Shown one piece after another: positions 7,306-24,958 of a stretch of DNA of 63,883 nt. Made by a program: the position numbers and the translations under genes. Position 1 is the stretch's first letter. Each line of letters begins with the position of its first letter. The DNA is from Candidatus Enterousia sp. (GTDB taxonomy: Bacteria > Pseudomonadota > Alphaproteobacteria > Rs-D84): positions 1-63,883 of the forward strand of contig JAZNAO010000023.1 of NCBI GenBank assembly GCA_045586565.1. The letters run 5' to 3'. The notes beneath the pieces are model-generated. The model worked only from the letters and a program-made list of their open reading frames with translations. It was not told where the DNA came from and searched no databases.

Positions 7306-7318
7306 GATAGGGGATGAA

Positions 7319-9854: not shown

Positions 9855-9857
9855 GAT

Positions 9858-10457
9858 ATGAAAAGAATTAAATTATTTGATCTTATAACTGTTGGTTGGA
9901 TACGGATAAAGCAGAATAAAACAACTGTTTATATCTTTGGCATACCAATCGTATCATTTAAAACCAAACGACATGTAAACGGTTTTAATAATGAGTGGAC
10001 ACGCGAGATATATAGAAAGTGTAAATGTGGTCAAAATGTTTGGTGCGGTGGTCCAACGCGGCTTACAAAACATTGTGAATTGGCAGACAATGTTTCTTTT
10101 AATGGATGCGAAGTACATGGTGATGGTCGCGTGGTGTTTGGCAAACATTTTCACAGCGGCGTTCAGTTACTGATAATCACCAGGAACCATAATTATGACA
10201 CAGGCCAACATATACCCTATTCACCTGATGATTATATCAGGAAAGATGTGATTATCGGCGATTTTGTATGGGTCGGTTCACGTGTTACGATACTGCCGGG
10301 AACCAAAATTGGCGAAGGTGCCATTATTCAAGCAGGTGCAGTTGTTCATGGCGATATACCGCCATGCGCGATTGTTGGCGGGAATCCTGCAAAAGTCTTT
10401 ATGTATCGTGATAAAGAACACTTTTATAAATTAAAAGAACAAGGTATGTTTCACTAA
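9858..10457 (+). CDS. hexapeptide-repeat (LbH) acetyltransferase
   Basis: IGDFVWVGSRVTILPGTKIGEGAIIQAGAVVHGDIPPCAIVGGNPAKV is a left-handed beta-helix O-acetyltransferase pattern. Confidence 0.85.
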   Translation: MKRIKLFDLITVGWIRIKQNKTTVYIFGIPIVSFKTKRHVNGFNNEWTREIYRKCKCGQNVWCGGPTRLTKHCELADNVSFNGCEVHGDGRVVFGKHFHSGVQLLIITRNHNYDTGQHIPYSPDDYIRKDVIIGDFVWVGSRVTILPGTKIGEGAIIQAGAVVHGDIPPCAIVGGNPAKVFMYRDKEHFYKLKEQGMFH

Positions 10458-10479
10458 AATATACAAGGGGTTAGGCAAT

Positions 10480-11754
10480 ATGTCTGTTATAACTTTTAAA
10501 GCCAGAAGTAAATATTTATATATCAAATTGTGCGGCATCCCGTTTCGAATAAAACACGGTAAACTGTCACGAAAAATGGTAGAACAATTGTTGGCAATGC
10601 GTTATAAGAAAAAGCTTAAAGTCATACGACAAAAGAAAAAAATTCGTGTTGGATTCTTGGTGGCAGAACCCGCCAAATGGGGGTATCAGTCTGTATATGA
10701 TGCGTTTGCAACGGAAAATCGTTTTGAACCAGTGATAATGACCACGAAACTGTCATTCGAACATAATAACGGAACAACCAATTATAAAACAATGGCAGAT
10801 TGTAAAGATTTCTTTGAACAAAAAGGGATGCGTGTAGAATCTGCATATGATGAAGCAAACAAACAATACATCCCGTTAAATAAAATGGATGTCGATATCG
10901 TTTTCTATGAACAACCTTGGGAATTAGACCAATCTCAACACCCAATAAATGTATCAAAATATGCAATCACTTGTTATTCATCGTATGGATTTGAATTGAT
11001 GAATTATTCTGGTTCTTATATGGAAAACTTTCATAGATGGATTGATTTTTTCTTTACCGTATCTGATGCGACATATGCATATATAAAAGACATTGCAAAA
11101 AATATGTCAAATGTATTTATTGTTGGATGGCCCAAGTTAGATGTATACCCAGATATTAAGCCGGCAAAACCCAGCAAGCCAATTATTATTTATGCGCCAC
11201 ACCATTCTTTTGAAGAAAACGGCCTAAATTTAGCGACGTTTCAATATAACGGGCAATTTATTTTAGATTTAGCAAAAAAATATGCCGATAAATTTGACTG
11301 GTACTTTAAACCACACCCCAGATTAAAACACGCACTGATAAAAAATAATATTATGACAGAACAGGAAGCCAATGATTACTATATGCAGTGGCAAAAAGTT
11401 GGTAAAATATGTGACAGCGGCGATTATTTTGAAATGTTTCAAGAATCATCAGCAATGATTACTGACTGTTGTTCTTTCTTGGGTGAATATTTGCCAACAG
11501 AAAAACCTGTTTTTCATCTTATAAATACAAAAGCACAGTTTAACGATGTGGCAAATTCATTTATTGGAACATATTATCAAATATACGATAATAAGCAATT
11601 GGTTAACGAGTTTGAACGTGTATTGATTGATGGCGACGATCATAAAAGAGCAATGCGTAAAAGTAAAATTCCATTGCTGTATGATAAAAATGAAAAAGCA
11701 GGTGTAAAAATATATAAAAAAATATTAGATTCATTGGAATACAAGGACGTATAA
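10480..11754 (+). CDS. CDP-glycerol/polyol-phosphate glycerophosphotransferase (TagB/TagF family)
   Basis: IIIYAPHHSF, FKPHPRLKH and SAMITDCCSFLGEYLPTEKPVFH match the TagF-family motifs (YAPTxR, HP, ITDYSS..fD....kP). Confidence 0.8.
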   Translation: MSVITFKARSKYLYIKLCGIPFRIKHGKLSRKMVEQLLAMRYKKKLKVIRQKKKIRVGFLVAEPAKWGYQSVYDAFATENRFEPVIMTTKLSFEHNNGTTNYKTMADCKDFFEQKGMRVESAYDEANKQYIPLNKMDVDIVFYEQPWELDQSQHPINVSKYAITCYSSYGFELMNYSGSYMENFHRWIDFFFTVSDATYAYIKDIAKNMSNVFIVGWPKLDVYPDIKPAKPSKPIIIYAPHHSFEENGLNLATFQYNGQFILDLAKKYADKFDWYFKPHPRLKHALIKNNIMTEQEANDYYMQWQKVGKICDSGDYFEMFQESSAMITDCCSFLGEYLPTEKPVFHLINTKAQFNDVANSFIGTYYQIYDNKQLVNEFERVLIDGDDHKRAMRKSKIPLLYDKNEKAGVKIYKKILDSLEYKDV

Positions 11755-11756
11755 AC

Positions 11757-12452
11757 ATGAAAAATTATGCAGTTATATTAGCATCGGGTATTGGCAGTCG
11801 ATATGGGCAAGAATTGCCAAAACAATTTGTTGTGGTGGCTGGCAAAACAATACTGGAACATACATTGGATATATTTCAACAAGCCAATAATATTGATGAT
11901 ATTATTGTTGTCATTACCCCAGAATACAGATATTTGGGCAAACAAATATTATCAAAAAATAATTATTCTAAAGTGTCACAATTATTAAATGGGGGTGCCA
12001 CACGCAAGGATAGTTCTGGAATTGGGATATCCGCAATTACAGATAAAGAAGCAAATGTATTGATTCACGATTGTGCACGTCCTTTCTTGAGCCAACGCAT
12101 CATCGATGATTGTGTTTCTGCGTTGGAAAAATATAATGCTATTGATGTCGCAATTCCTGCAACAGATACAATTATTGAAACCAATGATGACTTTATTTCA
12201 AACATACCAAACCGTGCGCGATTAATGTGCGGGCAGACACCACAATGTTTTAAGCTGTCTTTGATTAAACATGCACATCAATTGGCACAAAACGATCAAA
12301 ACTTTACAGACGATTGCGGTTTAATCTTAAAGTATAACCTATCGCCGATATATATTGTTCGTGGGGATGCAGAAAACATAAAAATCACCTATCCCAGTGA
12401 TATATTTTTGGCAGAAAAAATATTCCAGTCCAGACACGCAAAATCGAAATAA
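11757..12452 (+). CDS. IspD/TarI-family cytidylyltransferase (probably polyol-phosphate, TarI-like)
   Basis: The AVILASGIGSRYGQELPKQF N-terminal nucleotide-binding motif and the 231 aa length fit the family. The position next to a TagF-like gene argues for a glycan role rather than the MEP pathway. Confidence 0.8.
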   Translation: MKNYAVILASGIGSRYGQELPKQFVVVAGKTILEHTLDIFQQANNIDDIIVVITPEYRYLGKQILSKNNYSKVSQLLNGGATRKDSSGIGISAITDKEANVLIHDCARPFLSQRIIDDCVSALEKYNAIDVAIPATDTIIETNDDFISNIPNRARLMCGQTPQCFKLSLIKHAHQLAQNDQNFTDDCGLILKYNLSPIYIVRGDAENIKITYPSDIFLAEKIFQSRHAKSK

Positions 12453-12465
12453 TATGCATATACAA

Positions 12466-12494
12466 ATCTGGGGCAAAATGCCCCAGATTATTTT
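12466..12494. terminator. hairpin terminator between convergent genes
   Basis: atctggggc-aaaat-gccccagat followed by tatttt. It overlaps the stop codon of the minus-strand gene. Confidence 0.6.
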
Positions 12495-12748
12495 ATAACG
12501 GCGCTTTTGATGATGTTCAGGTCTTCTTTGATATCGTCGATTTTTATCTGAATCTGGCCGATGCCGGTTTCCAGTATCGTGGTGCGGTTCTCTAGTGCCG
12601 TTATGCGGACGTCAACACGTTCCAATTCGGCAATGGAAAAGTCTTGACGTGCCGCCCAATATATCAGACCCGCAACAAACGCAATTAAAAACCAACTGTC
12701 GCGCAAGAAATCAATTATCCCCAACGCCGAAGATGTACGTGTTGTCAT
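12488..12748 (-). CDS. phage-cluster small membrane/coiled-coil protein (86 aa)
   Basis: One TM (FLIAFVAGLIYWAA) followed by a coiled-coil-like tail. It is the last gene of the phage-like cluster and is tightly packed after the preceding gene. Confidence 0.5.
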   Translation of the reverse strand: MTTRTSSALGIIDFLRDSWFLIAFVAGLIYWAARQDFSIAELERVDVRITALENRTTILETGIGQIQIKIDDIKEDLNIIKSAVIK

Positions 12749-12749
12749 G

Positions 12750-12950
12750 TTATTTGTCCCCTTGGCCCCGCACTATATGCGTTTCAATTTGTTGAACCAA
12801 TGCACGTTGGGCCGCATGCCAGCGCAACTGGGCATCTGTGGCGTTTGCCCCCAACGTGCGATTAAAAATCGTTTCACGCAGGTGTTTTAACACCATCGCA
12901 CCAGATGGCGTCGAAAAACAACGCGCGTAATTTATATCAATGTCTGGCAT
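12750..12950 (-). CDS. Bbp19-like small phage protein
   Basis: YARCFSTPSGAMVLKHLRE... resembles my memory of the Bbp19-like phage domain. The ATG lies 1 nt after the portal stop codon. Confidence 0.45.
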   Translation of the reverse strand: MPDIDINYARCFSTPSGAMVLKHLRETIFNRTLGANATDAQLRWHAAQRALVQQIETHIVRGQGDK

Positions 12951-12951
12951 C

Positions 12952-14181
12952 TTATTCCCCCAGGGCTGTTTCAATTGCAGACATTTGGGCAATCGGTGCA
13001 ATATATTTTAATTCTGCATCGCCGTTTAATGTAATCGGTTCAATTACCCCGCGACGTGACAATATTTGCAGGCCCCTGTCGCACAGTGGTCGAATAAATT
13101 CATGCAACAGACGACCATATGTCGCCCCCAATATCCGCATCATGTCTGCATTGCGTGCCATAATTTCTGTGGCGGTCATTTCTTTTTCAGACAGCAACCC
13201 CAATCTGTCCGCCAGTAATGCATGGCGTATACGTTCGCGCAGGTCTTTCAGCACCAACTGCGACACGTCAAAGTCCGCGCCACTGGCCAACGGTGTCAGC
13301 CCAGACGACCCAACCGCCTTTGGTATAATCGCCCCCGGTGTCAGGTTGATATTATTCAAGTTTATAACACCATCATCGTCGGCCTGCCAGATGCCAGATA
13401 CGGCAATCGTTGCGTTCTTTAGAACCAATTCAACAACCTTGTTCGCAGTTTTTATATCTGGCAGTGCACGCAAGACAGGTCCACGGCCATACAATTCGCC
13501 CGATGATACAGACCAACGAAATATAATATATGGATTTGTTTCAAATGTACCGTGCGACACAATGTTATTTTCAATATCACCACCGACATCCAACCATGCG
13601 GTAAATTCTGTGCCAACCAGACTCTGCACCAGTTTTAGTGGGGTATCTGGGTCTTGTTTTATCGTATCGCGCAGATTGGCCGGCGGGGTCCATGTCGGAT
13701 ATTTATCCATGACTTCGCGTGCCGGCATTGATGTTGTATGAAATACTGCATTTGGTAAAATCGCAATATCAGACATTGGTATCGCCGTAAATGTAAATGC
13801 AGATGATGCACCAATTGGGGATTCTGCCATAAACAAACACGCCGTCCCCAATACGACCAAGTCCATATAACACTGATGAATAACCGTATAAAAATTAGAA
13901 TCGTTCAAATTTGCACGTAATTTGGATGTGGCAAATTCTGCATCAGGCGACAAAATACTTTCTGGCACCAGTGTCAGCCACATTGATTCTGGTGGGGTCA
14001 ACAGTGTGTATATCGATGCCGCCAGATTATCTGCCGCGTCCATCGCCGTTGCATCAAATAATGTTGCCGCATCATCATCAGCAGTTGGCATGGTATATTT
14101 GCGGGCATTATCCCAACGGTTTAACCATGGTGCGCGCATATCCAGTGCGCGTTTATACAAACTTTGCAGGTTTTGTTGCAT
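12952..14181 (-). CDS. podovirus head-to-tail connector (portal), T7 gp8-like
   Basis: Aligns by eye to T7 gp8. LYKRALDMRAPW..KYTMP matches VYERLKNDRAPY..QYTIP, NLAASIYTLLTPPESMW matches NLASKLMLALFPMQTW, the YGRGP block is shared, and TATEIMARNADMMRILGATYGRLLHEF matches TAEEIRYVASELEDTLGGVYSILSQEL. At 409 aa it is shorter than T7 gp8. Confidence 0.82.
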   Translation of the reverse strand: MQQNLQSLYKRALDMRAPWLNRWDNARKYTMPTADDDAATLFDATAMDAADNLAASIYTLLTPPESMWLTLVPESILSPDAEFATSKLRANLNDSNFYTVIHQCYMDLVVLGTACLFMAESPIGASSAFTFTAIPMSDIAILPNAVFHTTSMPAREVMDKYPTWTPPANLRDTIKQDPDTPLKLVQSLVGTEFTAWLDVGGDIENNIVSHGTFETNPYIIFRWSVSSGELYGRGPVLRALPDIKTANKVVELVLKNATIAVSGIWQADDDGVINLNNINLTPGAIIPKAVGSSGLTPLASGADFDVSQLVLKDLRERIRHALLADRLGLLSEKEMTATEIMARNADMMRILGATYGRLLHEFIRPLCDRGLQILSRRGVIEPITLNGDAELKYIAPIAQMSAIETALGE

Positions 14182-14210
14182 AAGGTTTCTCCTTTTGTTG
14201 TGTGTTATCT

Positions 14211-15074
14211 TTAAAGTTTGAAATTTGTGTTTGCAGTAAAAGTCTTTATCGTGCCACCAATTGGACGGGTTGGGGTTGGAACCTGGGCAATCGCGCCGGC
14301 AACTGCGTCCAGGCCGTCATCATGCATTCCACGCGCCAATGGCGACCATCCCAACATTTCAGATAATAGTGGTGTATTTTGAACACGTGTATGTGCATGC
14401 AGGCGTCCCGTGCTTAGCACTGGTTCAATCGCGTCCAGGATTCTGTCGGCCTTGGCACGTGTGTTCGATATGCGATTGACATAAATGTTTATGCCACGTC
14501 GCGACGCGCAATCGCGCATAATTTCTGGCAGACCGCCACCAATGCCATTGGTTTCAATTGTAATTCTATGTAAATTTCGTGCATGCATAAAATCTAACAC
14601 CATATCACATTGGCGCGACAGTGGAAATTGTTCGTCGTCTGAAACCGTCAGATATAAAATATCGTGAATAAATATATGGCGCGATTTATCGTCACGATAT
14701 AATAGCACGCATGCACTGCCGTCACGATGTGCACGGCCACTGGACGGGTCCCAATATAAAACACTGCCCGTGATATGCGATGCGCCAATTGTCGCGTTAC
14801 GCGGTTCAAATTCATCGTCATAAAAATGCAGTGCACCAGGATCCAGCCGTGCGCGTTCAGGGGACACAAATTCCAGCATCATCTGGGCAGAAAAATGTCG
14901 ATGTCCCACTGTTTCGCGCATTTGTTCGATTTTTTCAATCGGGAAAAGTTCCGGCCACGCCGGATTTCCGCACGTGTCTATTATCGGAATCTTTAATAAT
15001 TTATATCCGCATAAAAAAGGCGTTGAAAAAGCAAAATTTTCATATACCATTGAACCAAAGAAGGAATTAGACAT
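14211..15074 (-). CDS. large terminase, C-terminal (nuclease) half of a split gene
   Basis: CGYKLLKIP matches T7 gp19 RGYTTIIWP. RNase-H-like nuclease motifs are present: VLYWDPSSG, ITIETNGIGGG, HDDGLDAVAGA. The ORF is open up to 15149, and an in-frame ATG at 15074 is preceded by GGGGG. Confidence 0.8.
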   Translation of the reverse strand: MSNSFFGSMVYENFAFSTPFLCGYKLLKIPIIDTCGNPAWPELFPIEKIEQMRETVGHRHFSAQMMLEFVSPERARLDPGALHFYDDEFEPRNATIGASHITGSVLYWDPSSGRAHRDGSACVLLYRDDKSRHIFIHDILYLTVSDDEQFPLSRQCDMVLDFMHARNLHRITIETNGIGGGLPEIMRDCASRRGINIYVNRISNTRAKADRILDAIEPVLSTGRLHAHTRVQNTPLLSEMLGWSPLARGMHDDGLDAVAGAIAQVPTPTRPIGGTIKTFTANTNFKL

Positions 15075-16638
15075 GGATTTTACCCCCAAAACATTACCAA
15101 CAAATCTGGAAGCCGAACAGGCCGTATTGGCCGCAGTATTGATGAACAATCGCGCATTGGAACGCGTGTCTGAATTCCTGCGGGCGGAACACTTTTCGCA
15201 TCCCGCACACCAAGAAATATTTAAACTGGCCGAACGTCAATTCGCGGCTGGAATACCGTTTGATATTATTACTGCCAAGAACTATCTGGACCAACAAGGC
15301 GTTCTGGAATCTGTCGGTGGTGTAGATTATCTGACGCAATTGTCTGGCGCAGGCGCAACTGTTGTTAACGTTGAACAATACGGTCGCATCGTTTATGAAC
15401 ATGCAATGCGTCGCGATTTAATTGTACTGGGCCAAGATATTACAGACAAAGCATTTATCGAAGACTTGGATAATCCTGTGGCACGCCAGATTGAATTGGC
15501 GGAACAGAAACTGTTCGACATGGCAACCGCAGGGTCCGCAGAACGTGAAGTGACATCCATTTCAACAGCGTTACAGGCGGCACTGGCCGAAGCAGAAATC
15601 GCATACAAGGCCGATGGACAATTGTCGGGCCTTACCACTGGGTTAAGCGCACTGGACAAGTCAATCAGTGGTCTGCATCATTCTGACCTGATTATTATCG
15701 CAGGACGTCCCGCAATGGGAAAGACTACGTTGGCCATGAACATCGCGTTTAATGCCGCAAACGCAATCGCATACAATCGCGCAAACAAAAATTATAAGGG
15801 CGCCGTTGTTTTCTTTAGTTTGGAAATGTCTGCATCACAGTTGGCAGCACGTGTATTATCGTCACAATCAAAAATTCCGGCATCTGCAATGCGCGAAGGA
15901 ACGCTGACGGACGAAGACTTCTTGAAAATGTCACAATATTCTGCCGCAATCAGCAAGGTGCCACTGTTTATTGATGATACACCGGGTATGTCTGTGCCAA
16001 TGATGCGCACGCGCGCGCGTCGTTTGGCGCGTAAACACGGTGGAATTGCATTGATTGTGATTGACTATCTGCAATTGATGACCGCCCCAGGTGGAAAACG
16101 CAGTGATAATCGTGTTCAAGAAATTTCTGAAATCACACGTGGTCTGAAAATGTTGGCCAAGGAACTGGATGTACCGGTTATCGCCCTGTCCCAGTTATCA
16201 CGCAGTGTCGAAGCACGCGATGATAAACGTCCACAGTTGGCAGATTTACGTGAATCGGGTTCTATTGAACAAGACGCCGACATTGTTATGTTTACGTATC
16301 GTGAAGAATACTATCTGCAAAATCGCGACCCGTCCGAAAGATTGTCCAATACAACCAACAGTGCAATGGTGGAAAGTTGGCAAAAACGATTGGAACGCGC
16401 ACGTGGCAAGGCAGATATCATCATAGGAAAAAACCGTCACGGACGCCCAGAAACAGTGCGTACGGCATTCTTTGGCGATTACAGTTTGTTTGATAACCTG
16501 GACGAATTCCAGGCACGCGGCGAAAATGAATTTGCGTCCCCTGCACCAACGATTTCTGCATCTGCGTTGGAACCAGACCCAAATTTTGAACCGACTGCAA
16601 TTGATGCCGATGCAATCCCAGATGATATGCCATTGTAA
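15073..16638 (+). CDS. dnaB: replicative DNA helicase DnaB with acidic C-terminal extension
   Basis: N-terminal domain LEAEQAVLAAVLMNN, Walker A GRPAMGKTT, IVIDYLQLM, SQLSR and QDADIV motifs. AAGGAA RBS precedes the ATG at 15073. About 45 extra acidic/Pro-rich residues follow the conserved FDN end. Confidence 0.9.
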   Translation: MDFTPKTLPTNLEAEQAVLAAVLMNNRALERVSEFLRAEHFSHPAHQEIFKLAERQFAAGIPFDIITAKNYLDQQGVLESVGGVDYLTQLSGAGATVVNVEQYGRIVYEHAMRRDLIVLGQDITDKAFIEDLDNPVARQIELAEQKLFDMATAGSAEREVTSISTALQAALAEAEIAYKADGQLSGLTTGLSALDKSISGLHHSDLIIIAGRPAMGKTTLAMNIAFNAANAIAYNRANKNYKGAVVFFSLEMSASQLAARVLSSQSKIPASAMREGTLTDEDFLKMSQYSAAISKVPLFIDDTPGMSVPMMRTRARRLARKHGGIALIVIDYLQLMTAPGGKRSDNRVQEISEITRGLKMLAKELDVPVIALSQLSRSVEARDDKRPQLADLRESGSIEQDADIVMFTYREEYYLQNRDPSERLSNTTNSAMVESWQKRLERARGKADIIIGKNRHGRPETVRTAFFGDYSLFDNLDEFQARGENEFASPAPTISASALEPDPNFEPTAIDADAIPDDMPL

Positions 16639-16707
16639 TTATTTGCTTGCGCGGGAATCAAAATTTGACTATTATTTTGTCAAGAATTAGTCATTAGGAG
16701 TTTTGCC

Positions 16708-17715
16708 ATGGCACAAGAAGAAATTATATTTCCAAATAACATTCGCAACATCCGCTTGGCTGCGGGAATGAAAATGACCGAATTGGCGCGTCGCACAGGG
16801 TTGTCTTTATCTGCAGTATCAAAGATTGAAAAGGGCGTTCGTCGTTTAAACCAGAAACAATTGCTGAATGTGTGCAATATCTTAGGGTGCAAATTATCAG
16901 ACATCTTTATCAAAGAATCTGATGATGTCGCCGACCAATGGCAAAACGAAATTAAACGCCGTATGACAGACAACGAAAACAACGGTCTGAAAATATTCGG
17001 CAGTGGTCTGCGCAAAATCCGCCAACAGGCCGGCAAAACAATCGCACGCGCCGCCAAAGAAGCCGGAATGACATTATCTGTATATCACAAGATAGAGGTT
17101 GGTCAACGCGAAATATATACCGATGAAATTGAACCCTTGGCAAAATCTTTCGCATTGAATGCAGAACAAATGTTCGAAAAAATCGCAAACTTATACAAAT
17201 CAGGCGAATTGACCAAACAAATGAACAAGGTCAAAGAACGTGTGCAATCTGTGTTGGAACCGGGCAACCCACTGTCGGGAATGAATATCGGCGGCGGATT
17301 GTTTGGTGCGAAATTATATGACAGTGCACGTAAAAAATTGGTGCCTGTATTTGGAACACCGTCAGGCAAAGCCATCGCATTCAAAAAATCTGACAAAACA
17401 ATGATTGTGGCACCAATGTCATTGGAAGGACGTCGTGATATTTACGCCGTCATGCCTAATTCAAAGCGTCTGGGCGGTGTTATACCTGAAAAATCTTATG
17501 TTTTGGCAGACGCATCTGTCCCCGCACAGGTTGGTGATATGGCCATATGTATTGATGCGCAATTTGAATCATTAGATACAGATACAAATGTTACCGCACA
17601 TGTCGCGATGGTCAAGCAAGATGCCAAAGGTAAATTATACGGTCAACTGGTTGGACCAGATGAAAAAATAACATATCAAACAATGCACAAAGTTATTATG
17701 ATTGTGATGGAATAA
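16708..17715 (+). CDS. tandem XRE-HTH regulator with S24/CI-like C-terminal domain
   Basis: Two HTH_XRE-like units (IRNIRLAAGMKMTELARRTGLSLSAVSKIEKG and LRKIRQQAGKTIARAAKEAGMTLSVYHKIEVG). The C-terminal beta-rich region resembles the LexA/CI S24 fold (VPVFG..., GDMAI). Confidence 0.65.
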   Translation: MAQEEIIFPNNIRNIRLAAGMKMTELARRTGLSLSAVSKIEKGVRRLNQKQLLNVCNILGCKLSDIFIKESDDVADQWQNEIKRRMTDNENNGLKIFGSGLRKIRQQAGKTIARAAKEAGMTLSVYHKIEVGQREIYTDEIEPLAKSFALNAEQMFEKIANLYKSGELTKQMNKVKERVQSVLEPGNPLSGMNIGGGLFGAKLYDSARKKLVPVFGTPSGKAIAFKKSDKTMIVAPMSLEGRRDIYAVMPNSKRLGGVIPEKSYVLADASVPAQVGDMAICIDAQFESLDTDTNVTAHVAMVKQDAKGKLYGQLVGPDEKITYQTMHKVIMIVME

Positions 17716-17737
17716 CAACCATATACGGAGAGAGATA

Positions 17738-18376
17738 ATGAAAGCCAAAGCCAGCGCAACCGCACAAAGACTGTTAAATCTGTACCGCCAAGAACATGTG
17801 ATTGTCGGCGGGTGGGCAGTAATCAATCCGATATTTGTTGCAGATGCGTCTGATGATGTTATCGCAGAATTGCGCGACAAACCGAACGGTAACACGTTGA
17901 TAAAACATATCGAGAATCTGCGCAGTGGTAAAACACCAATGGATTCAATTGAACGTGAGCTGTTACCATATGGTGGTATGATGACAGAAGAAATTGCATC
18001 TATTACGTTGACACCGGCACAATGGCAAGAATTGACACAGGGAATTGAAAACTTTACCCCAGATCAAGCAGGATTGGATGTATTTCAGGCTTTAAACGTT
18101 GTTCGCACATTTGGTGCGGAATGGCCCGTAGCAATTCGTGCTGCATTATCAGCGCGTCCACAATTACTGGACAAATGGAATGTTATAAACCAAACGTATA
18201 ATGCATATAGACTGTGGAATACAGCACACGAAGTTATCGCAAACCCATTGTCGGAACGTGTCCGCGCCCAGGTCCAAGCAGATATGCCAGAATATGAAAC
18301 ATACCTGCCGATGTTTGGAAACGCGGGGGCGGAACTGTTGACCAAATTACGAACATTTGTCAGCAGTTTAAACTAA
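17738..18376 (+). CDS. hypothetical protein (212 aa)
   Basis: Clean ORF with GGAGAGAG RBS. I recognise no family. Its stop codon overlaps the stop of the convergent terminase N-half. Confidence 0.55.
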   Translation: MKAKASATAQRLLNLYRQEHVIVGGWAVINPIFVADASDDVIAELRDKPNGNTLIKHIENLRSGKTPMDSIERELLPYGGMMTEEIASITLTPAQWQELTQGIENFTPDQAGLDVFQALNVVRTFGAEWPVAIRAALSARPQLLDKWNVINQTYNAYRLWNTAHEVIANPLSERVRAQVQADMPEYETYLPMFGNAGAELLTKLRTFVSSLN

Positions 18377-18990
18377 TCTAATTTGTTTGTGCGATATATC
18401 GTATCGTGCGTGTGTGGCGTTCCAATGTATATCATTGCACCAGATGGCGATAGTATAAAATCCAATTCACGCAACCTTTCCCGTAATGCCGCGCGTTTTT
18501 GTGCTGTGTTTGATGTATTTGGCACTTCGACATCATCGCATAATATTAAATCTGCGCGCATGCCTGTGATATTGCCATGAATCCCCTGACAAATAACAGA
18601 CGGTTCACGTATACCGATGGGGCGATTGATTGTAATACGCCCAGACGCCCATTCTTTTTTATTCTTTGGAATCATATCTGTGCACCATGGATGATTTTCC
18701 AAAATATGCCGAATATGCCCAACCATACGGGTGGCCAAACCGTTTTCAGCTGATAAAATCAATATCCGTGTTTGGGGACGCAGGTATAACACACATGCGG
18801 CAAAAATCCCAACCACTGTGGATTTCCCAGAATGACGAAATGCCATCAACAAACCACGCCCCGGTGCATCAGAAAATATTTCAACCAGAAATTTCATTAT
18901 TTGGTAATGATGTGTGGGCGTTTTAAATCCTAAGACACGATTCCATTGATCTAAAAAAGTATTAAATTGTGTAATCATATTATTCCACAA
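18373..18990 (-). CDS. large terminase, N-terminal (ATPase) half of a split gene
   Basis: Aligns to T7 gp19. LLMAFRHSGKST matches ILQAFRGIGKSF (Walker A), ILILSAE matches ILIVSAS, RADLILCDDVEVPNTSNT matches RADIIIADDVEIPSNSAT (Walker B), and IYIGTPHTHDTIY matches [13 protein letters not shown]. It stops 6 codons later. Confidence 0.85.
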   Translation of the reverse strand: MWNNMITQFNTFLDQWNRVLGFKTPTHHYQIMKFLVEIFSDAPGRGLLMAFRHSGKSTVVGIFAACVLYLRPQTRILILSAENGLATRMVGHIRHILENHPWCTDMIPKNKKEWASGRITINRPIGIREPSVICQGIHGNITGMRADLILCDDVEVPNTSNTAQKRAALRERLRELDFILSPSGAMIYIGTPHTHDTIYRTNKLD

Positions 18991-19327
18991 TATTATCTAA
19001 TCTGGACAGCAAAGATTTTAATAAATTAGGCTTTTTGACGCGTGTTCCTTTTAACTTTTTCAGATTTTCGGCACTCTTTTTCTGATAAGGCATTGCAGTT
19101 TCTGATTGCAAGCGTTTTAATACCGCACCTTCGGTAATACCATTGCCAGACATCCCAAAAGCACCATATTTTGCACGCTGGGTTGCCAAAACTTTTTTAA
19201 TCAGATTTGTTTTTTCGGCATTATCTGCGGCCATTTGTGCCAAGATTTCTTTGCGTTCTGATTTTGCCGCTTTTTTACTGTCTTTGTAATCCAATATTTC
19301 TGTTACATCTGATACTAATTGTCCCAT
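18980..19327 (-). CDS. hypothetical phage protein (116 aa), possible small terminase by position only
   Basis: AAGGAAA RBS. Lys-rich and helical. Its 3' end overlaps the terL-N start by 11 nt. No family recognised. Confidence 0.45.
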   Translation of the reverse strand: MGQLVSDVTEILDYKDSKKAAKSERKEILAQMAADNAEKTNLIKKVLATQRAKYGAFGMSGNGITEGAVLKRLQSETAMPYQKKSAENLKKLKGTRVKKPNLLKSLLSRLDNIVE

Positions 19328-19355
19328 TTGTTTTCCTTTTTTTTGATTAAAAATG

Positions 19356-21071
19356 CTATACAGAATACCAACCATGCACACCAACAGATAAAACAGTCAA
19401 AGGATATGGTTCGTTGCTGTCAATTGTCCAGGTTGGCATAGAACAGTTTGATTGCGTCCCCAAAATATTTATTGATACATCGCCAGAAAAACCTGGGGAC
19501 GATATATCGTAAACATCATTGGGCAACGTAACACGTTTCCCATTTATATTTATAAACTTTGTGTTCATAATACGGGCAACAATACGATGTAATTTGATGT
19601 ATCGTGGAATATGACCTGACGCAATCATTGGAATGCCTGATGCGACACATGTGAAATCATATTTATCTGCATCACGCATTGTATCTGAATCAAAGTATTC
19701 CAAGAATATACCATCTGACCGATGGACAACAACATACGTCTGGTCATTGGATATACCAACTGAAATAAACTGACCATTGGTAGAATATCTTGCCCACGCA
19801 GAAATCCCCAGCGGAGAATTCTGATTCAGAACTGCCATATTGCCATCCATACCCACAACGTATAAACGACATAATGTATCATTATATGCAATATCCATCG
19901 GTGTATTCAGTATATGTTTCGCAAATGCGCACAAATCATTGGCATTATATTTTTCACCCAAATCATCTAAACCCAGTTCACGAATATCACGACCGTTTGA
20001 CGACACAAATATTGTTGCGCCTTTGATAGTCTGGGGTGGCAGATATCGTGACGAATACGATCCAACAGATGTATGTTGCCGTATATCAACATTCGATGGG
20101 GTTAAAGGCTTGCTGGATATTGCCCATTCACCGACATTTGTTAGTATTTGCAGATTATCACTGCTGACCACGGTACAGATTTGTTGACGATGTTGCGATA
20201 ATAATGAAACAAAAATCGCTTCGTCGTCCAAACCTGTCCCTGGGGCAAATGTAGTATGTTTCCCAACCTGGGATATCCATATACCAGACGGGTAATCACG
20301 TGACCCACCAAATATCAGTCGGTTTTGATGAAACGTTATACTGCGTGGCCAACCACGACGTGCGCTGAACGCTGCTTCTTGCCAATCGCTTATGGGTTCT
20401 GACGGTGTTTTATATGAACTATTTGTATGTGCAACAACCTGGGTCGGATTGATGTATTCTGTAATAACCCACTGTTGTTCCAATAAATACAATCGTGTGT
20501 TTACATTTTCTGGGGTCCAAAAATTCTGGTTGGTTGTTAGTGTGGCAAAATTATTGCCTTTGTCATTTATTGTAACTGTAATAGTTATTCCATCAGTATC
20601 TTCAAATTTCACAAATGGTATATTTGATGTCATATCATTGTCATTACGCGAAAAGTCAAAATCTGACATGCAGAACCCCTGTGACGTCTTGGACAAACAG
20701 ACAGGTCTGTAATCAGGGTGAACAAATATCATTGTTCCAAAACGTTGTGCGTATTGCAGATTCGACAAATCATCATATGACCATGGTGTGATTAAATCCT
20801 GGTATTTTTCATTGTCGTAATATATATACATATGATAATTAGTTAGGGCAATTAAATATTCTGTGCCATCAGATACAGACATAGAAATCAAGCGGGCATT
20901 ACCAGGTAATCGCGCCACTGATTTTAGGCCGCAACGCCGTGTTATACCCCCACCTGCTAAAACATCCATATTTTCTAGTTTTGACAAACCGTGTATATTA
21001 TCGTTTGTATAAAATTCTGGCGCAATTTCACCAGATGCAAATGTATTTTGCGTTTTAATAAAGTTAGACAT
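19356..21071 (-). CDS. tail tubular protein B (T7 gp12-like nozzle)
   Basis: The N-terminal SGEIAPEF...LENMDVLAGGGITRRCG resembles gp12 GGISQQPD...vNGwss..eGLQKRPP. ITFHQNRLIFGGS..GIWISQ matches gp12 VFFFRNRLGFLSGENIILSR. At 572 aa it is shorter than T7 gp12. Confidence 0.68.
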   Translation of the reverse strand: MSNFIKTQNTFASGEIAPEFYTNDNIHGLSKLENMDVLAGGGITRRCGLKSVARLPGNARLISMSVSDGTEYLIALTNYHMYIYYDNEKYQDLITPWSYDDLSNLQYAQRFGTMIFVHPDYRPVCLSKTSQGFCMSDFDFSRNDNDMTSNIPFVKFEDTDGITITVTINDKGNNFATLTTNQNFWTPENVNTRLYLLEQQWVITEYINPTQVVAHTNSSYKTPSEPISDWQEAAFSARRGWPRSITFHQNRLIFGGSRDYPSGIWISQVGKHTTFAPGTGLDDEAIFVSLLSQHRQQICTVVSSDNLQILTNVGEWAISSKPLTPSNVDIRQHTSVGSYSSRYLPPQTIKGATIFVSSNGRDIRELGLDDLGEKYNANDLCAFAKHILNTPMDIAYNDTLCRLYVVGMDGNMAVLNQNSPLGISAWARYSTNGQFISVGISNDQTYVVVHRSDGIFLEYFDSDTMRDADKYDFTCVASGIPMIASGHIPRYIKLHRIVARIMNTKFININGKRVTLPNDVYDISSPGFSGDVSINILGTQSNCSMPTWTIDSNEPYPLTVLSVGVHGWYSV

Positions 21072-21088
21072 TGCAAATCCCCCAGAAA

Positions 21089-21607
21089 TTAAAATCGATT
21101 GGTAATCAATGAAAAATCTTGCAATGCATCTGATGCAGATGTTGTACTGTCTATGAATTTGGCCGTTTGCAGTTCTGATTCGAACAGGGCCGCCAACATA
21201 CGAAACACCGATTGATTCCCGGTTAGAGGGATACAAAATTCCATTGCCAAACGTGTGGCAACCAACGATACAAAATATCCAGGGAACGCATCTGGCGATG
21301 TTCGAACTAATGCAGTAATTGTTATATCTGATGCATCTGAAATAATACGATTACCAATAATGCGACCATGTGTTTTTAATACACGTAAAACATTTGATGG
21401 AATCAGAAAATCACCATCAGCATTGCGCATCAGCGAAATTTCTTGGGTCGCAAAACGCCATGGATGTAGTGATAACAATGTATCTGTTACAGAATCATAC
21501 AATGTTCGTGCCAATTGTGACGTGGCAGAATCATCCGTAAAAGACTGAATTGGTGATTCCCCCAATTTTAACAATGCCATTGAACATAAATCTATCTTGG
21601 AAAGCAT
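21089..21607 (-). CDS. tail tubular protein A / adaptor (T7 gp11-like)
   Basis: CSMALLKLGESPIQSFTDDSATSQLARTLYDSVTDTLLSLHPWRFA parallels T7 gp11 [46 protein letters not shown]. Size is similar at 172 aa. Confidence 0.68.
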   Translation of the reverse strand: MLSKIDLCSMALLKLGESPIQSFTDDSATSQLARTLYDSVTDTLLSLHPWRFATQEISLMRNADGDFLIPSNVLRVLKTHGRIIGNRIISDASDITITALVRTSPDAFPGYFVSLVATRLAMEFCIPLTGNQSVFRMLAALFESELQTAKFIDSTTSASDALQDFSLITNRF

Positions 21608-21628
21608 TTTTGCACCTTTTGGTTATAT

Positions 21629-21661
21629 AAAAAAATTTGGGCGACAAAACATATCGCCCAA
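21629..21661 (-). terminator. rho-independent terminator after the capsid/76-aa unit
   Basis: On the minus strand: ttgggcga-tatgttttg-tcgcccaa followed by a T7 run. This is analogous to the T7 T-phi position downstream of the capsid gene. Confidence 0.7.
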
Positions 21662-21678
21662 TTATGAATTCGAATAAT

Positions 21679-21909
21679 TTATGCCAACGCAACGGTTGTA
21701 ACATTTAATTCTGTGATATTGATTTTTTTTATCGCAGTATTATCAGATGCATTCATTATAATAATATCGCCAATATTCATCAATGTTTTAACGTCATTAA
21801 AATATCCATTGGATGTAATTGTTGACAATGTTTCATTTGCACTGTAATGCCACAATGTAAATCCATTCGCATATGCGATAACAGACAAATTTTTATTCTG
21901 GAATGCCAT
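21679..21909 (-). CDS. small phage protein (76 aa) downstream of capsid
   Basis: Intact ORF with an AAGGAAAAA-type RBS, 40 nt after the capsid stop. No family recognised. Confidence 0.5.
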   Translation of the reverse strand: MAFQNKNLSVIAYANGFTLWHYSANETLSTITSNGYFNDVKTLMNIGDIIIMNASDNTAIKKINITELNVTTVALA

Positions 21910-21949
21910 GTGTTTTTCCTTTTGGTTTATGGGTTATTTAAATTGTGAT

Positions 21950-22771
21950 TTATTGTGCATCAGAACATTTGACACGAACAATACCATCACCATCAATCAA
22001 AACAGCGCCTTGGGACATACTGTTGCTGATAAAGTGTGCAGCACGTTCACCATGCCATGAAATATCTGTTTTGACTTCTTGGCCACATGCGTGACCAATA
22101 CTGGACGCGTGATAAATAAAGCAATCGCGTTTGTCGCCATCTGATGGCAAACCGTTGTACAGAACCCATGTGATACCCAACCATTTGCGGGCTTCGGCAC
22201 CGTTTAACAAAGGCAACGAATCACCAACATAATCAGCAGATACAAATTCGTCCATTGATAACAATTCATTCCATTGACGCACACCAACAACCGCAAAACG
22301 TCGACCGTCGTCCGGAACATCGTTTGTGTTTAAAACTTCTAATGCAGACAGAACCAAATCTTTGGTCATACCTGTGCTGTAATCACCAACTGTGGCAGTC
22401 GCAGCATTCATTGCAGACACAATCAATTCATCTGTTTTGCGTCCCAACGCATATGCGCCGGCAGATGCAACAACGCGACGTTCATCAACGTTTGTTTTTA
22501 ATTCGTCCAACGCATCAACCCAATCGCCCGCATAGTAATCCTGTAACAGGCATTCTACGGGTTCGTGATTTAGATTCATCACCGGAACAATACCGTGACG
22601 TGATTTTGTGCTGGCCATGCCACGACCAACCTTTTGGAAAGTGGTCGACGCACCAACAACACCAGATTTACTGCGAATTGTCGAACGCAGTTTTGTGCCC
22701 ATTTGCTGATATGCCAAATGAACATCGGCTTCGAATTGTTTCACAAATACATTATCTATGGAAACAGACAT
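21950..22771 (-). CDS. major capsid protein (T7 gp10-like)
   Basis: VFVKQFEADVHLAYQQ...TFQKVGRG parallels gp10 LFLKVFGGEVLTAFAR...QFPVLGRT. It follows the scaffold gene. AAAGGA RBS precedes the Met at 22771, so the ORF-track start at 22846 is probably too long. Confidence 0.72.
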   Translation of the reverse strand: MSVSIDNVFVKQFEADVHLAYQQMGTKLRSTIRSKSGVVGASTTFQKVGRGMASTKSRHGIVPVMNLNHEPVECLLQDYYAGDWVDALDELKTNVDERRVVASAGAYALGRKTDELIVSAMNAATATVGDYSTGMTKDLVLSALEVLNTNDVPDDGRRFAVVGVRQWNELLSMDEFVSADYVGDSLPLLNGAEARKWLGITWVLYNGLPSDGDKRDCFIYHASSIGHACGQEVKTDISWHGERAAHFISNSMSQGAVLIDGDGIVRVKCSDAQ

Positions 22772-22902
22772 ATAAAAATCCTTTGGTTTACAAATTGATA
22801 TTGATGTGAAAAACACATCACCAAATTTTGTGTTTTGGTTATGCATATAAAATGCGCCATAAATACAAAAAAAAATTTAGGGTCCGAATAATTCGGATTA
22901 TC

Positions 22903-22974
22903 CAAAAAAAATATCAGTCAGACTGTATATATCATCTGACTGATACTTTTAAAAATCCCCGCGAATGCGGGGAT
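22903..22974 (-). terminator. tandem rho-independent terminators after the Lys-rich gene
   Basis: On the minus strand: atccccgc-attc-gcggggat + tttt (22974..22947). Then an 11-bp-arm hairpin tatcagtcaga-N12-tctgactgata followed by T8 (22945..22903). Confidence 0.65.
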
Positions 22975-22978
22975 TATA

Positions 22979-23425
22979 TTATTTTTTCTTTACTGCTTTT
23001 TTTGCCGGTGCTTTTTTTGCAACTGGTTTTTTAACCGCTGCTTTTTTTGCCGGTGCTTTTTTTGCAACTGGTTTTTTAACCGCTACTTTCTTTGCAGGTG
23101 CTTTTTTTGCAACTGGTTTTTTAACAGCTACTTTCTTTGCAGGTGCTTTTTTTGCAACTGGTTTTTTTACCGCTACTTTTTTTGCAGGGGCTTTTTTTGC
23201 AACCGGTTTTTTTACCGCTACTTTTTTTGCAGGTGCTTTTTTTGCAACCGGTTTTTTAACCGCTACTTTTTTCGCTGCAGGTTTTGCAACAGGTTTCGCA
23301 GCCGCTTTCTTGGCAGGGGCTTTTTTTGCAACCGGTTTTTTAACCGCTACTTTTTTCGCTGCAGGTTTTGCAACAGGTTTCGCAGCCGCTTTCTTGGCAG
23401 CAGATTTTTTAAACAAGAATGCCAT
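22979..23425 (-). CDS. histone H1-like Lys/Ala/Pro-repeat basic protein (148 aa)
   Basis: Sequence [12 protein letters not shown]([28 protein letters not shown])n. AAGGAGAG RBS, with its own promoter and terminators. The + strand ORF 22965..23444 is its mirror artefact. Confidence 0.8.
22990..23400. repeat. in-frame tandem repeats (45-bp unit x ~5, 84-bp unit x 2)
   Basis: ctttctttgcaggtgctttttttgcaactggttttttaacagcta-type 45-bp unit (= [15 protein letters not shown]). An 84-bp unit is repeated at 23261 and 23345. Confidence 0.85.
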
Positions 23426-23482
23426 TCTTTCTCTCCTTACTTAAGTTTTGGATAGAACAAATCCGTTTTGTTCTTGATATGT

Positions 23483-23511
23483 ATTTTATCGTAAATACAA
23501 AACTTAGTAAA
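23483..23511 (-). promoter_or_regulatory. candidate promoter of the Lys-rich gene
   Basis: On the minus strand: TTTACT, 17 nt spacer, TAAAAT. Lies in the gap between the scaffold stop and the Lys-rich gene. Confidence 0.45.
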
Positions 23512-23531
23512 GTAGAAAGTGTATTTTTTTA

Positions 23532-24188
23532 TTACGAATATAATTTTTTAAAACCATTTTCTATTTTTCGAATGTATTCTGTATCTTTGTCACGCCAATA
23601 TTTTGGGTCACGCATCATACGACGCAAATCTGCATCTGTTAAATTTTTTATGTCAACAGAATTTATTTCAACACTGGGTTCCATTGACTGCATCATCTTA
23701 TACACACTTTGAATTCCCTGGGGTGTAGCGCACAAAGCATCAAATGCATCTTGTGGTAAAAATTTTTCACCGAATGTATTTATTGCATTTAATGCATCTG
23801 TCATTTTTTCATTACCACCAAAAAAATTTTTTAATTCATTTATTGCATTTGTTTCATTTTGTACGGAATATAATTCAGATATCACAGGAGATAAAAATTC
23901 ATTTGCAATATCATAAATTTTTTCAACCTGGGATACAGTTAATCCAATTTCTAAAAATTTATCACGCAACTTTTCATCATTATATAATTCGTGTGTTGGA
24001 TATTCCGATGCATTTTCTGGAACACCAATTGCACGATTAAATTTTCGACGCGTATCTGCATCAGAATCAGCACCTGGAACAGATATCATTGTGCCAATCT
24101 TTTTTTCTAGTTCTGTATACGATTTTACTAATGCATCTGCATTTAACGTGCCATCACTGTTTTGAAATTTTTCTGGTATATTATCCAT
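23532..24188 (-). CDS. capsid scaffolding protein (T7 gp9-like)
   Basis: The C-terminal LRRMMRDPKYWRDKDTEYIRKIENGF matches T7 gp9 MIKAMSDPRYRTDANYRRQVEQKV. Acidic, helical protein sitting just upstream of the capsid gene. Confidence 0.78.
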   Translation of the reverse strand: MDNIPEKFQNSDGTLNADALVKSYTELEKKIGTMISVPGADSDADTRRKFNRAIGVPENASEYPTHELYNDEKLRDKFLEIGLTVSQVEKIYDIANEFLSPVISELYSVQNETNAINELKNFFGGNEKMTDALNAINTFGEKFLPQDAFDALCATPQGIQSVYKMMQSMEPSVEINSVDIKNLTDADLRRMMRDPKYWRDKDTEYIRKIENGFKKLYS

Positions 24189-24379
24189 TATTGTTTTCCT
24201 TTGGTTTCATTAGATTTGCGTAAAAAATAAATTCCAGCCAACGTAAATATTGTTTGCAACATAGTGAATATATCTGTATCACCCACCAGGTATGCCGCCA
24301 CTGCAGATAATATCCCTGTCGCAGAAATTATATATGTTCTGTATCCGGTCAGATATCCACCCTTGATTATTCTTTTCAT
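24188..24379 (-). CDS. holin-like two-TM small protein (63 aa)
   Basis: Two hydrophobic helices and a charged C-terminus (RKSNETKGKQ). Lies between the lysin and scaffold genes, with ATG overlapping the scaffold start region. Confidence 0.5.
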   Translation of the reverse strand: MKRIIKGGYLTGYRTYIISATGILSAVAAYLVGDTDIFTMLQTIFTLAGIYFLRKSNETKGKQ

Positions 24380-24388
24380 GTTGATTAC

Positions 24389-24799
24389 CTATCTGTAAAA
24401 CAATACGCCATCAATATCTGCAATATAACCACGTGCAGTTGCCCAATCTGGTATAACATCATCATTATGAAAACGCGTTGCGCCGAAACATACATCTGGC
24501 AAATTTCCTGTCAACATACGTTGGGCGGTACGTACACACATTTGAAAACCACGATCATTTGCAGGAACATTTAATTTGATGTGGTTTGTAGCGTTATCAG
24601 ATAATACATCAAAAATTTTAATATCTTGTATAATATCTTTATAGGCGACATTATATGTTTTGGATATATTATCAATCATTGATGTCATTGCTTCGACCAG
24701 ATGCAGTGATGCACCACCTGTCTGTGCATATACAACACGTGCAATTTTATATGCCAACGATGCGGATGTATCCGAATTTTTGATAAGTGTCATTTGCAT
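24389..24799 (-). CDS. SleB/CwlJ-family cell wall hydrolase (lysin)
   Basis: ARVVYAQTGGASL...AMTSMIDN...GATRFHNDDVIPDWA resembles the Hydrolase_2 (SleB) pattern. GGGAGAG RBS precedes the Met at 24799. Confidence 0.6.
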   Translation of the reverse strand: MQMTLIKNSDTSASLAYKIARVVYAQTGGASLHLVEAMTSMIDNISKTYNVAYKDIIQDIKIFDVLSDNATNHIKLNVPANDRGFQMCVRTAQRMLTGNLPDVCFGATRFHNDDVIPDWATARGYIADIDGVLFYR

Positions 24800-24816
24800 G
24801 ATTATCTCTCCCAAAC

Positions 24817-24867
24817 AAAAAACCACGCAAATGCGTGGCAATAAAAAAACCACAACCAATGTTGTGG
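24817..24867 (-). terminator. two tandem rho-independent terminators
   Basis: On the minus strand: ccacaacattggttgtgg + T7 (24867..24843), and ccacgcatttgcgtgg + T6 (24838..24817). Both lie downstream of birA and immediately upstream of the lysin RBS. Confidence 0.75.
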
Positions 24868-24894
24868 ACAGTATTTGTGCTGTTGATGCATTAT

Positions 24895-24923
24895 ATATTA
24901 GCACATTTGTATACAAAAGTCAA
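24895..24923 (-). promoter_or_regulatory. sigma70-like promoter upstream of the tandem terminators
   Basis: On the minus strand: TTGACT (24923..24918), 17 nt spacer, TAATAT (24900..24895). Confidence 0.5.
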
Positions 24924-24958
24924 GAACAAAATGCATAAACCGCAGTTTTTCAATATTT

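Follow-up and report, generated by a model that had tools for sequence, protein, structure and literature searches.

What becomes of a DNA-packaging motor whose gene has been broken in two? The question is raised by a 63,883-nt stretch of Candidatus Enterousia DNA (contig JAZNAO010000023.1, hereafter the window), in which the large terminase gene, terL, of a T7-like particle cluster is found as two pieces, terL-N and terL-C, with 3.3 kb between them. Few molecular motors known are as powerful as the large terminases, which are normally described as single chains whose ATPase and nuclease communicate through a linker. The coordinates confirm what the initial annotation of this locus had read from the letters, namely that the two pieces lie on one strand in N-to-C order and that the genes between them, dnaB, a gene for a helix-turn-helix (HTH) regulator and a gene for a 212-aa protein, lie on the plus strand. 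That annotation had offered a precise inactivating insertion, a two-piece terminase and a regulatory lock on DNA packaging as possible meanings. From comparison with related genomes, intact homologues and predicted folds, we favour, with a probability of about 0.7, an ancient fission of terL into two genes whose products would form a two-chain terminase in a domesticated cluster for a T7-type particle resembling a gene transfer agent (GTA).

TerL-N, of ~201 aa, is encoded on the minus strand by the open reading frame (ORF) 18373..18990, which opens at TTG 18990 and probably has its true start at ATG 18978. It covers positions 1-191 of the 500 positions of NF033889 with 227.8 bits (cut-off 150) and positions 273-459 of phrog_38, and it aligns with residues 45-211 of the T7 gp19 and PhiV-1 terminases, the alignment stopping at residue 210/211. 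It carries the Walker A motif (FRHSGKST), the Walker B motif with the catalytic glutamate (LILCDDVEV) and motif III (IGTPH), and in the window it terminates 5 residues past DTIYRT. TerL-C, also on the minus strand, has 287 aa when counted from ATG 15074 (14211..15074); the ORF that contains it (14211..15149) covers positions 483-708 of phrog_38 and 330-500 of NF033889, and the nuclease family PF22530 scores 23.6 bits on it, under the cut-off of 27. Besides the next strand of the ATPase core (KLLKI) and the lid subdomain, this second piece holds the RNase H-like nuclease, whose WDPS, ETNG and DDGLDA motifs align with the same motifs in T7 gp19 and in intact relatives. The single polypeptide of ~480-590 aa that serves as a criterion for the T7-type large terminase (TerL) was found in no Enterousia locus.

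The position of the break was established against intact proteins. Among 1.8 billion representative proteins searched, intact TerLs of 480-505 aa turned up with ~50% identity to terL-N, and their alignment places the split site between the helix after motif III (...TIYA) and the next strand (PFLxGFxRLxLPILD). With 80 intact genomic relatives (our loci L085-L164) both pieces are collinear and in one reading frame, and the junction stretch measures 24 aa in the split version versus a median of 12 aa (range 3-27) in the intact ones. Judged by this alignment, nothing is lost at the break, and the ~12 extra residues are the new termini; the initial claim that no residues are missing is thereby upheld, and the two ORFs belong to the same families and want no large segment. 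Three representatives of ~200 aa (P0153, P0218 and P0238) were considered as other split terminases and set aside; the relatives of P0238 are intact 538-aa TerLs on viral contigs of 35-47 kb, and the short entries are probably fragments.

An AlphaFold2 model of the two pieces joined end to end, for which intact relatives supplied the alignment, reached a mean predicted local distance difference test score (pLDDT) of 90.4 and a predicted template modelling score (pTM) of 0.85, with low confidence at residues 201-220 alone, that is, at the junction (pLDDT 55-70). Its best match in the PDB is the T7-like PhiV-1 terminase (E = 1.3e-26). In this model strand 230-234 (KLLKI, from terL-C) is followed by the lid helices and then by the nuclease, and it would pair with the sheet of terL-N. 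The fused model aligns over ~285 columns with ATPase-only structures (P74-26) and over ~204 columns with nuclease-only structures (P22), from which it follows that ~80 residues of the ATPase domain, one core strand and the lid, are carried by terL-C. The break thus lies in a variable loop inside the ATPase domain, past motif III, and not at the boundary between ATPase and nuclease: the initial description of two TerL pieces stands, and the labels 'ATPase half' and 'nuclease half' attached to them were inexact.

Both ends of the intervening segment are tight. The 212-aa gene stops with a TAA (18374-18376) that overlaps the TAG at which terL-N stops (18375-18373), the ATG of dnaB (15073-15075) and that of terL-C (15074-15072) overlap in the palindrome CATG at 15072-15075, and GGGGG stands 9-13 nt upstream of the terL-C ATG, all of which (the overlapping stops at 18373-18376 included) agrees with the first reading of the locus. 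In 71 of 73 loci the terL-C ATG and the dnaB ATG meet in a CATG in this way, and a Shine-Dalgarno (SD)-like GGGGT or GGAGT is found 8-12 nt upstream of it across loci. At the other end, the 3' ends of terL-N and the 212-aa gene overlap by 4 nt in most species (gap range -84 to +10 nt), and terL-N closes with 1-15 variable, mostly acidic residues past DTIYRT. ATG 18978 lies 1 nt past the TAA stop of the upstream 134-aa gene, p134 (GAA TAA T ATG, 18976-18982), and codons 4-13 of terL-N, which form the initiation region at this upstream stop, show less synonymous variation; the sequence suggests translational coupling from p134 to terL-N. A longer terL-C starting from TTG 15149 (312 aa, with a 77-nt overlap with dnaB) was rejected because synonymous variation in dnaB codons 1-25 is normal (four-fold-site entropy, H3, 1.54) and ATG 15074 is conserved; the frame upstream of the terL-C ATG is open because the DnaB sequence is conserved.

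The arrangement is widespread. More than 500 relatives of terL-N were found in GTDB species genomes, and the best 80, each from a different species, are all from gut alphaproteobacterial metagenome-assembled genomes (MAGs), many of them named Candidatus Enterousia. In every long-enough locus of these 80 the order is tail, p134, terL-N, the three opposite-strand genes (212-aa gene, HTH regulator, dnaB), terL-C and portal, and the same architecture occurs in about 70 species-level MAGs, including the circular metaFlye long-read MAG OZ007020.1. A further 174 relatives were found in IMG/VR, all on fragments of at most 21 kb and none in a complete phage; the same junction is present in 74 of the 75 informative fragments, and the same arrangement in 60 of the 76 loci of a second scan. 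Wherever the sequence reaches that far, the cluster adjoins lipB (61 of 61 loci), and the opposite flank is variable. The order Rs-D84, to which Enterousia belongs, has reduced genomes, mostly <1 Mb, and an apparent dependence on partners (PMC12306168); phage genes are not mentioned in the published descriptions of Enterousia and Rs-D84 that we searched (PMC12306168).

Strong purifying selection acts on both terL pieces. Nei-Gojobori estimates for pairs of loci, with synonymous sites near saturation (proportion of synonymous differences, pS, ~0.7), gave ratios of nonsynonymous to synonymous divergence (dN/dS) of 0.10 for terL-N and 0.17 for terL-C, beside 0.07 for the portal gene, 0.06 for dnaB, 0.08 for the regulator gene and 0.21 for the 212-aa gene; the values near 0.8 for p134 and the tail tubular protein B gene came from saturated, filtered pairs, are unreliable and were not used. 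Over 71-80 species little or no variation is seen in the Walker A motif FRHSGKST, CDDVEV, IGTPH, WDPS and DDGLDA, and the ETNG nuclease motif is conserved, with its N and G invariant.

What dates the fission relative to the genes in the gap is a set of sister lineages, reached by a scan seeded with a divergent terL-N and showing 63-70% identity. Several of these MAGs are labelled 'Rickettsiales bacterium', and their isolate names suggest a termite gut, though the records themselves name no source. The break in the sister lineages is the same (...GTPHxxDTIYQV*, then M-S-PFL...), and the content of the gap differs from one to another: dnaB alone on the same strand as terL (locus L258); dnaB and an 834-aa Cys-rich gene on the opposite strand (L256); the regulator and 212-aa genes opposite with dnaB co-directional (L274); an enlargement to 9 kb (L282); or, dnaB being absent, a mere 0.45 kb of non-coding DNA in which a promoter-like site and a strong intrinsic terminator are found (L309). 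In L259 terL-N runs directly into the portal gene, with dnaB past the small gene s83 and no terL-C within 6 kb; in L262 and L279 the downstream flank (10 kb and ~4 kb, respectively) holds neither terL-C nor portal; and in L264 dnaB lies upstream of the hydrolase gene. Since the break is common to the sister lineages and the gap contents differ, the fission of terL is older than the present gap content. In these gene orders the two pieces behave as separate genes, and dnaB keeps near the cluster without forming one mobile unit with it; the single 3.3 kb 'dnaB cassette' of the initial annotation is not supported, as the gap content differs or the halves are unlinked among these lineages.

Some features of the sister loci deserve a record of their own. 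The L309 spacer (10577-11060) contains a TTGACA-17-TATATT promoter-like site and, ~150 nt on, the strong intrinsic terminator, with no Rfam match beyond chance, and it could be a small RNA gene. A large Cys-rich protein (686-834 aa), which is rich in Gly towards its C-terminus and matches nothing in Pfam, is encoded next to dnaB in both L256 (7367-9871, minus strand) and L259 (14675-16735, minus strand). In L256, a prepilin-like 155-aa gene and a gene for a ParA-like ATPase lie between terL-C and portal.

Uninterrupted terL was indeed found in related alphaproteobacteria. The intact lineage, with homologous capsid, portal, scaffold and tube genes, occurs in hundreds (>500) of alphaproteobacterial species genomes, for example in Magnetospirillum (L091, Magnetospirillum fulvum), Terasakiella (L101), Thalassospira, Roseomonas, Elioraea (L151), Micavibrio and other gut MAGs, and neither dnaB nor the regulator gene nor the 212-aa gene lies near the intact terL in the relatives examined. 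Their genes run in the sequence portal, s83, scaffold, capsid, s76, tube A, tube B, a stretch of 0.8-5 kb, terL and hydrolase; unlike these relatives, the Enterousia cluster has the portal gene after terL and the hydrolase gene first, and is therefore a rearranged derivative. A compact version of ~8.5 kb, lacking internal-core and fibre genes, is present in the gut MAGs L104, L114, L118, L119, L122 and L147.

The following course of events would account for these observations. The terL gene of a chromosomally fixed, vertically inherited, T7-like cluster for head, tail and packaging would have been split long ago in Enterousia and related Rs-D84. The pieces would be translated separately, the second from its own ATG with the SD-like GGGGT or GGAGT, and would reassemble non-covalently, probably by completion of the beta-sheet. 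The resulting two-chain terminase would package DNA into particles made from the capsid, scaffold, portal and tail-tube proteins encoded nearby. The Enterousia gap is filled and frozen by dnaB, the HTH regulator gene and the 212-aa gene on the opposite strand, and the dnaB promoter has become embedded in the first codons of the second piece.

This embedded promoter left a strong mark on the second piece. A promoter scan predicted a sigma-70-like dnaB promoter at 15013..15050 on the plus strand, within terL-C codons 9-21, composed of an upstream A-tract, a -35 element TTGAAA (15023-15028) and a -10 element TAnnAT (15045-15050), 23 nt upstream of the dnaB ATG; A-tract, -35 and -10 are all conserved in the nucleotide alignment of 73 loci. 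Over terL-C codons 2-26 (14997-15071) H3 falls to 0.36 versus a gene mean of 1.52, with a top-codon fraction of up to 0.99, the evidence at this start spanning 42-73 species, and the terL-C residues AFSTPFL are encoded by the reverse complement of the A-tract and -35 region. A scan of six genes for suppressed synonymous variation returned two signals only, this one and that in terL-N codons 4-13. By the sequence evidence, terminase codons here double as the predicted dnaB promoter, a clear instance of coding sequence put to two uses.

The gene that this promoter would serve, dnaB (15073..16638, plus strand, divergent from terL-C), encodes a replicative DNA helicase of alphaproteobacterial type. 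Its product exceeds the curated equivalog cut-offs of NF006606 (614 bits; cut-off 540) and TIGR00665 (504.7; 385.25) and stays under that of the phage_DnaB exception model (407.7; 498.65). It is 48% identical to the product of an Azospirillum dnaB adjoining alr and 44-49% identical to the best phage records, so that similarity does not decide between a host and a phage origin, and only the NCBIfam equivalog cut-offs favour a host-type DnaB. The dnaB in the gap is probably the genome's only copy and hence essential to the cell, given the genomes of <1 Mb, its dN/dS of 0.06 and its retention in a locus where particle genes have been lost (L016, discussed below). The closest DnaB from a phage collection (49% identity) is encoded at 6269-7663 of MT835812.1 (L177), an unverified 17-kb 'Bacteriophage sp.' record from human faeces which holds no cluster genes and may be a misassigned bacterial fragment. 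Next to dnaB, the regulator gene (16708..17715, plus strand) encodes two N-terminal HTH domains (Pfam HTH_3 twice) followed by a 165-aa C-terminal part without any Pfam or PDB sequence match, and the 'S24-like' label given to it initially finds no support in the sequence. The 212-aa protein (unk212; 17738..18376, plus strand) is lineage-specific: it has no match in Pfam, PHROG, NCBIfam or PADLOC, it counts 1245 relatives, of which the 120 listed are all 211-215 aa long and named only 'hypothetical protein', and its AlphaFold2 model is all-helical (pLDDT 78) with no fold match in the PDB.

The terL pieces belong to a compact T7-like morphogenesis cluster on the minus strand at 12.4-25 kb of the window. 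In the order of transcription it begins with a gene for a cell-wall hydrolase, or lysin (24389..24916; PF07486, with a score under its cut-off), and continues with those for the T7-type scaffold (23532..24188; PF05396), a Lys/Ala-rich low-complexity HC2-like protein (22979..23425; histone H1-like HC2 PF07382, 78 bits), the major capsid protein (21950..22846; PF19821, 2.9e-70), the 76-aa protein s76 of the head module (21679..21909), and tail tubular proteins A (21089..21607; phrog_394, 2.8e-31) and B (19356..21236; phrog_376, 2.9e-81), PF17212 being named for tubes A/B. Thereafter come p134 (18980..19384), which is present in all loci, has no family match and occupies a position typical, by location only, of a small terminase or internal protein, then terL-N, terL-C and, immediately downstream, the T7-type portal or head-to-tail connector gene (12952..14181; PF12236, 3.2e-82). 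Two small genes of conserved synteny, for the 83-aa Bbp19-like s83 (12750..13001; PF25181) and an 86-aa protein (12488..12748), end the cluster, which a bidirectional terminator predicted at 12465-12489 closes. The HC2-like protein, whose sequence conservation is limited to the closest relatives, may be a DNA-condensing or internal head protein. Domain and family scans of 12.4-26 kb and its flanks found no integrase, excisionase or phage-type replication module. The remainder of the window is ordinary chromosome (BamA, RseP, AlaRS, GapA, MiaA, LipB and tRNAs), the cluster being flanked by lipB, miaA and gapA on one side and by a glycosyltransferase island on the other. This adjoining island (8748-12452) is of low GC content (31-35%), holds glycosyltransferase, hexapeptide-transferase and IspD-like cytidylyltransferase genes, and forms the flank that varies between species.

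Several observations weigh against a working two-chain terminase, and we set them out together. Pfam and PHROG scans recognised no tail fibre or internal-core (ejection) genes in the cluster and identified no small terminase there, so the cluster may make no transducing particles. In one Enterousia species (locus L016, JAZLBQ010000007.1, 9500-14600) the portal and tube A/B genes are lost and terL-C is cut to a 169-aa ORF, next to an intact terL-N, dnaB, regulator gene and 212-aa gene; by this loss and shortening, the particle genes are dispensable at least in L016. The median identity to intact relatives is 35% for terL-C versus 48% for terL-N, the second piece evolving faster, and the synonymous-site scan found no conserved terL-C promoter inside dnaB. 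Obviously, two-chain assembly, terminase activity, packaging and particle production are all steps that we infer from sequence.

Nevertheless, the explanations that would make the break a simple defect or an appearance fare much worse. The window and all of its relatives are metagenome-derived, a circumstance in which errors of assembly or binning come to mind; the same junctions, however, recur in >130 independent assemblies from differing studies, hosts and assemblers, a circular metaFlye chromosome among them, and we exclude such an artefact, which had been named at the outset as grounds for refutation. Host genes might also have landed in terL and left both ORFs as decaying relics, and the decay of particle genes around an intact dnaB in L016, together with a cluster lacking fibre and ejection genes, would fit such a history. 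It is nonetheless a highly improbable one: about 70 species keep both pieces intact, their catalytic residues are almost invariant, dN/dS is 0.10-0.17 with dS saturated, the terL-C start codon is conserved, and the break point stays constant though the gap contents differ. The precise inactivating insertion is thus refuted by conservation in the related genomes examined, by the dN/dS values (0.10 and 0.17) and by the near-invariant motifs. Hardly any more credible is a gene rejoined by DNA excision, an RNA intron or a split intein, for which the collinear halves on one strand would be suitable; phages are well known to have terminase genes interrupted by group I introns, inteins and homing endonucleases, and such genes are restored by intron or intein splicing (PMC12880540, PMC2677866). 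Against an RNA intron, Rfam gave no intron match at E <= 0.1 across 11000-27000 of the window, so a group I or II ribozyme was rejected, and the 0.45 kb spacer of L309, with no intron match and only chance-level hits in a search at E <= 1, carries an intrinsic terminator between the pieces. Excision of the skin or nifD type was likewise discarded: the repeat search found no meaningful direct or inverted repeats flanking the insert (the longest being at chance level), Pfam, PHROG, NCBIfam and PADLOC scans found no recombinase, homing endonuclease or intein domain among the gap proteins, both in line with the first reading, and the junction sequences differ between species. As for a split intein, the terL-N tail of 1-15 aa and the terL-C head of at most 19 aa vary in sequence and length, contain no intein blocks and are too short, published split inteins having N-terminal parts of 88-105 aa and C-terminal parts of 33-122 aa (PMC2677866). 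Furthermore, the gap holds a probably essential dnaB, and the halves are unlinked in some genomes. Among the initial possibilities we therefore favour the two-piece terminase, with its break fixed to the residue over deep lineages, its own conserved ATG and SD-like site for the second piece, and its confident fused fold.

A different matter is whether the nesting itself does something, and this is compatible with a two-piece terminase. In a regulatory lock, head-on nested transcription would set the particle operon and the dnaB operon to interfere with each other, or, in a variant, the late transcript would be an antisense RNA to dnaB and the regulator gene and would tie packaging to the replication state of the cell. 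Much in the layout speaks for it: terL-C and portal lie downstream of 3.3 kb that are transcribed oppositely from the dnaB promoter, the abutting ends of terL-N and the 212-aa gene (-84 to +10 nt) leave no room for a terminator, the terminator scan found no strong minus-strand terminator in the gap, the dnaB promoter within terL-C is extremely conserved with no conserved internal terL-C promoter found, and the arrangement is frozen throughout Enterousia. We still consider the lock unlikely. The element does not require nesting, since it is missing in sister lineages (in L258 and L274 dnaB runs in the same direction as terL, the gap of L309 lacks dnaB, and the halves are unlinked in L259 and L262); the data can be explained without the regulatory role that the gene layout suggests; and tight, overlapping genes are to be expected anyway in genomes of <1 Mb with ~90% coding density (PMC12306168). 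More doubtful again is the proposal that the linkage to dnaB is functional, such that particle machine and helicase would form one regulatory unit coupling chromosome replication to packaging, in a new class of GTA, derived from a podovirus, whose packaging motor would naturally have two chains. Such coupling might come about by antisense or head-on transcription, or by local loading of the helicase with run-off replication (ROR) akin to that of the Bartonella ROR/BaGTA system; the position of dnaB is in the terL gap in either orientation or, in L259 and L264, just outside the cluster.

Returning to the split terminase that we favour, its closest relatives in kind are the T7 gp19-type enzymes (NF033889; PDB 4BIJ and 8DGC), with which it shares the fold, Walker A and B, motif III and the RNase H-like triad, as well as the neighbourhood of T7-type portal, scaffold, capsid and tail tube A/B genes; it differs in being encoded as two polypeptides and in belonging to a bacterial chromosome, with vertical inheritance, and not to a phage genome. 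In function its nearest analogue is nrdA of Aeromonas phage Aeh1, which is described as split by the homing endonuclease gene mobE, its pieces reassembling non-covalently (Friedrich et al. 2007, as cited in PMC2677866). There too an enzyme gene was cut into two collinear ORFs with a new stop and a new start at the insertion, reassembly being presumed for Enterousia. The Enterousia insert, however, is dnaB and a regulator gene, mostly on the opposite strand, with no homing endonuclease, and, unlike nrdA, the terL split is fixed across an order-level lineage and its halves can be unlinked. In 'fractured genes', one of which is a T4-like terminase, a split intein, together with a free-standing endonuclease gene, lies between the halves (Dassa et al. 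2009, PMC2677866). These resemble the present case in that the halves sit at a single locus, ordered and oriented as they were originally, and foreign ORFs lie between them, but the Enterousia junction has neither intein halves nor an endonuclease, and hence no protein splicing is possible. Group I introns also interrupt terL in Twort-like phages. In the Jug phages, another case, terL is present as two or three collinear fragments with group I introns and RNA splicing (PMC12880540). Enterousia differs from both by the lack of a detectable ribozyme and by the 3.3 kb of opposite-strand genes between its pieces.

The comparison with GTAs such as RcGTA and BaGTA extends to the whole cluster: all are compact, phage-derived, devoid of integrase and phage replication genes, held at a fixed site, inherited vertically and kept under purifying selection. 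RcGTA is siphovirus-like, whereas the Enterousia cluster is derived from a T7-like podovirus, is known from its genes alone and has no fibre or ejection genes within it. In the literature that could be searched we found no description of a T7-like GTA or of this split-terL arrangement.

If the favoured reading is true, a natural terminase cut within its ATPase fold, maintained by selection through a long stretch of evolution, would offer a system for dissecting how the Rossmann core, lid and nuclease cooperate, and would mark a natural permissive site for protein engineering. It would also add to the few documented cases in which a gene of a virus-derived machine has undergone fission without splicing. 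The dnaB promoter placed, by prediction, in terminase codons is a clean example of dual coding through genome compaction. In genomes of <1 Mb, any 9 kb of 'phage' genes that are kept must pay their way, and the cluster is a candidate for a hitherto undescribed T7-like GTA in gut bacteria that have genomes of that size and appear to be obligately dependent on partners.

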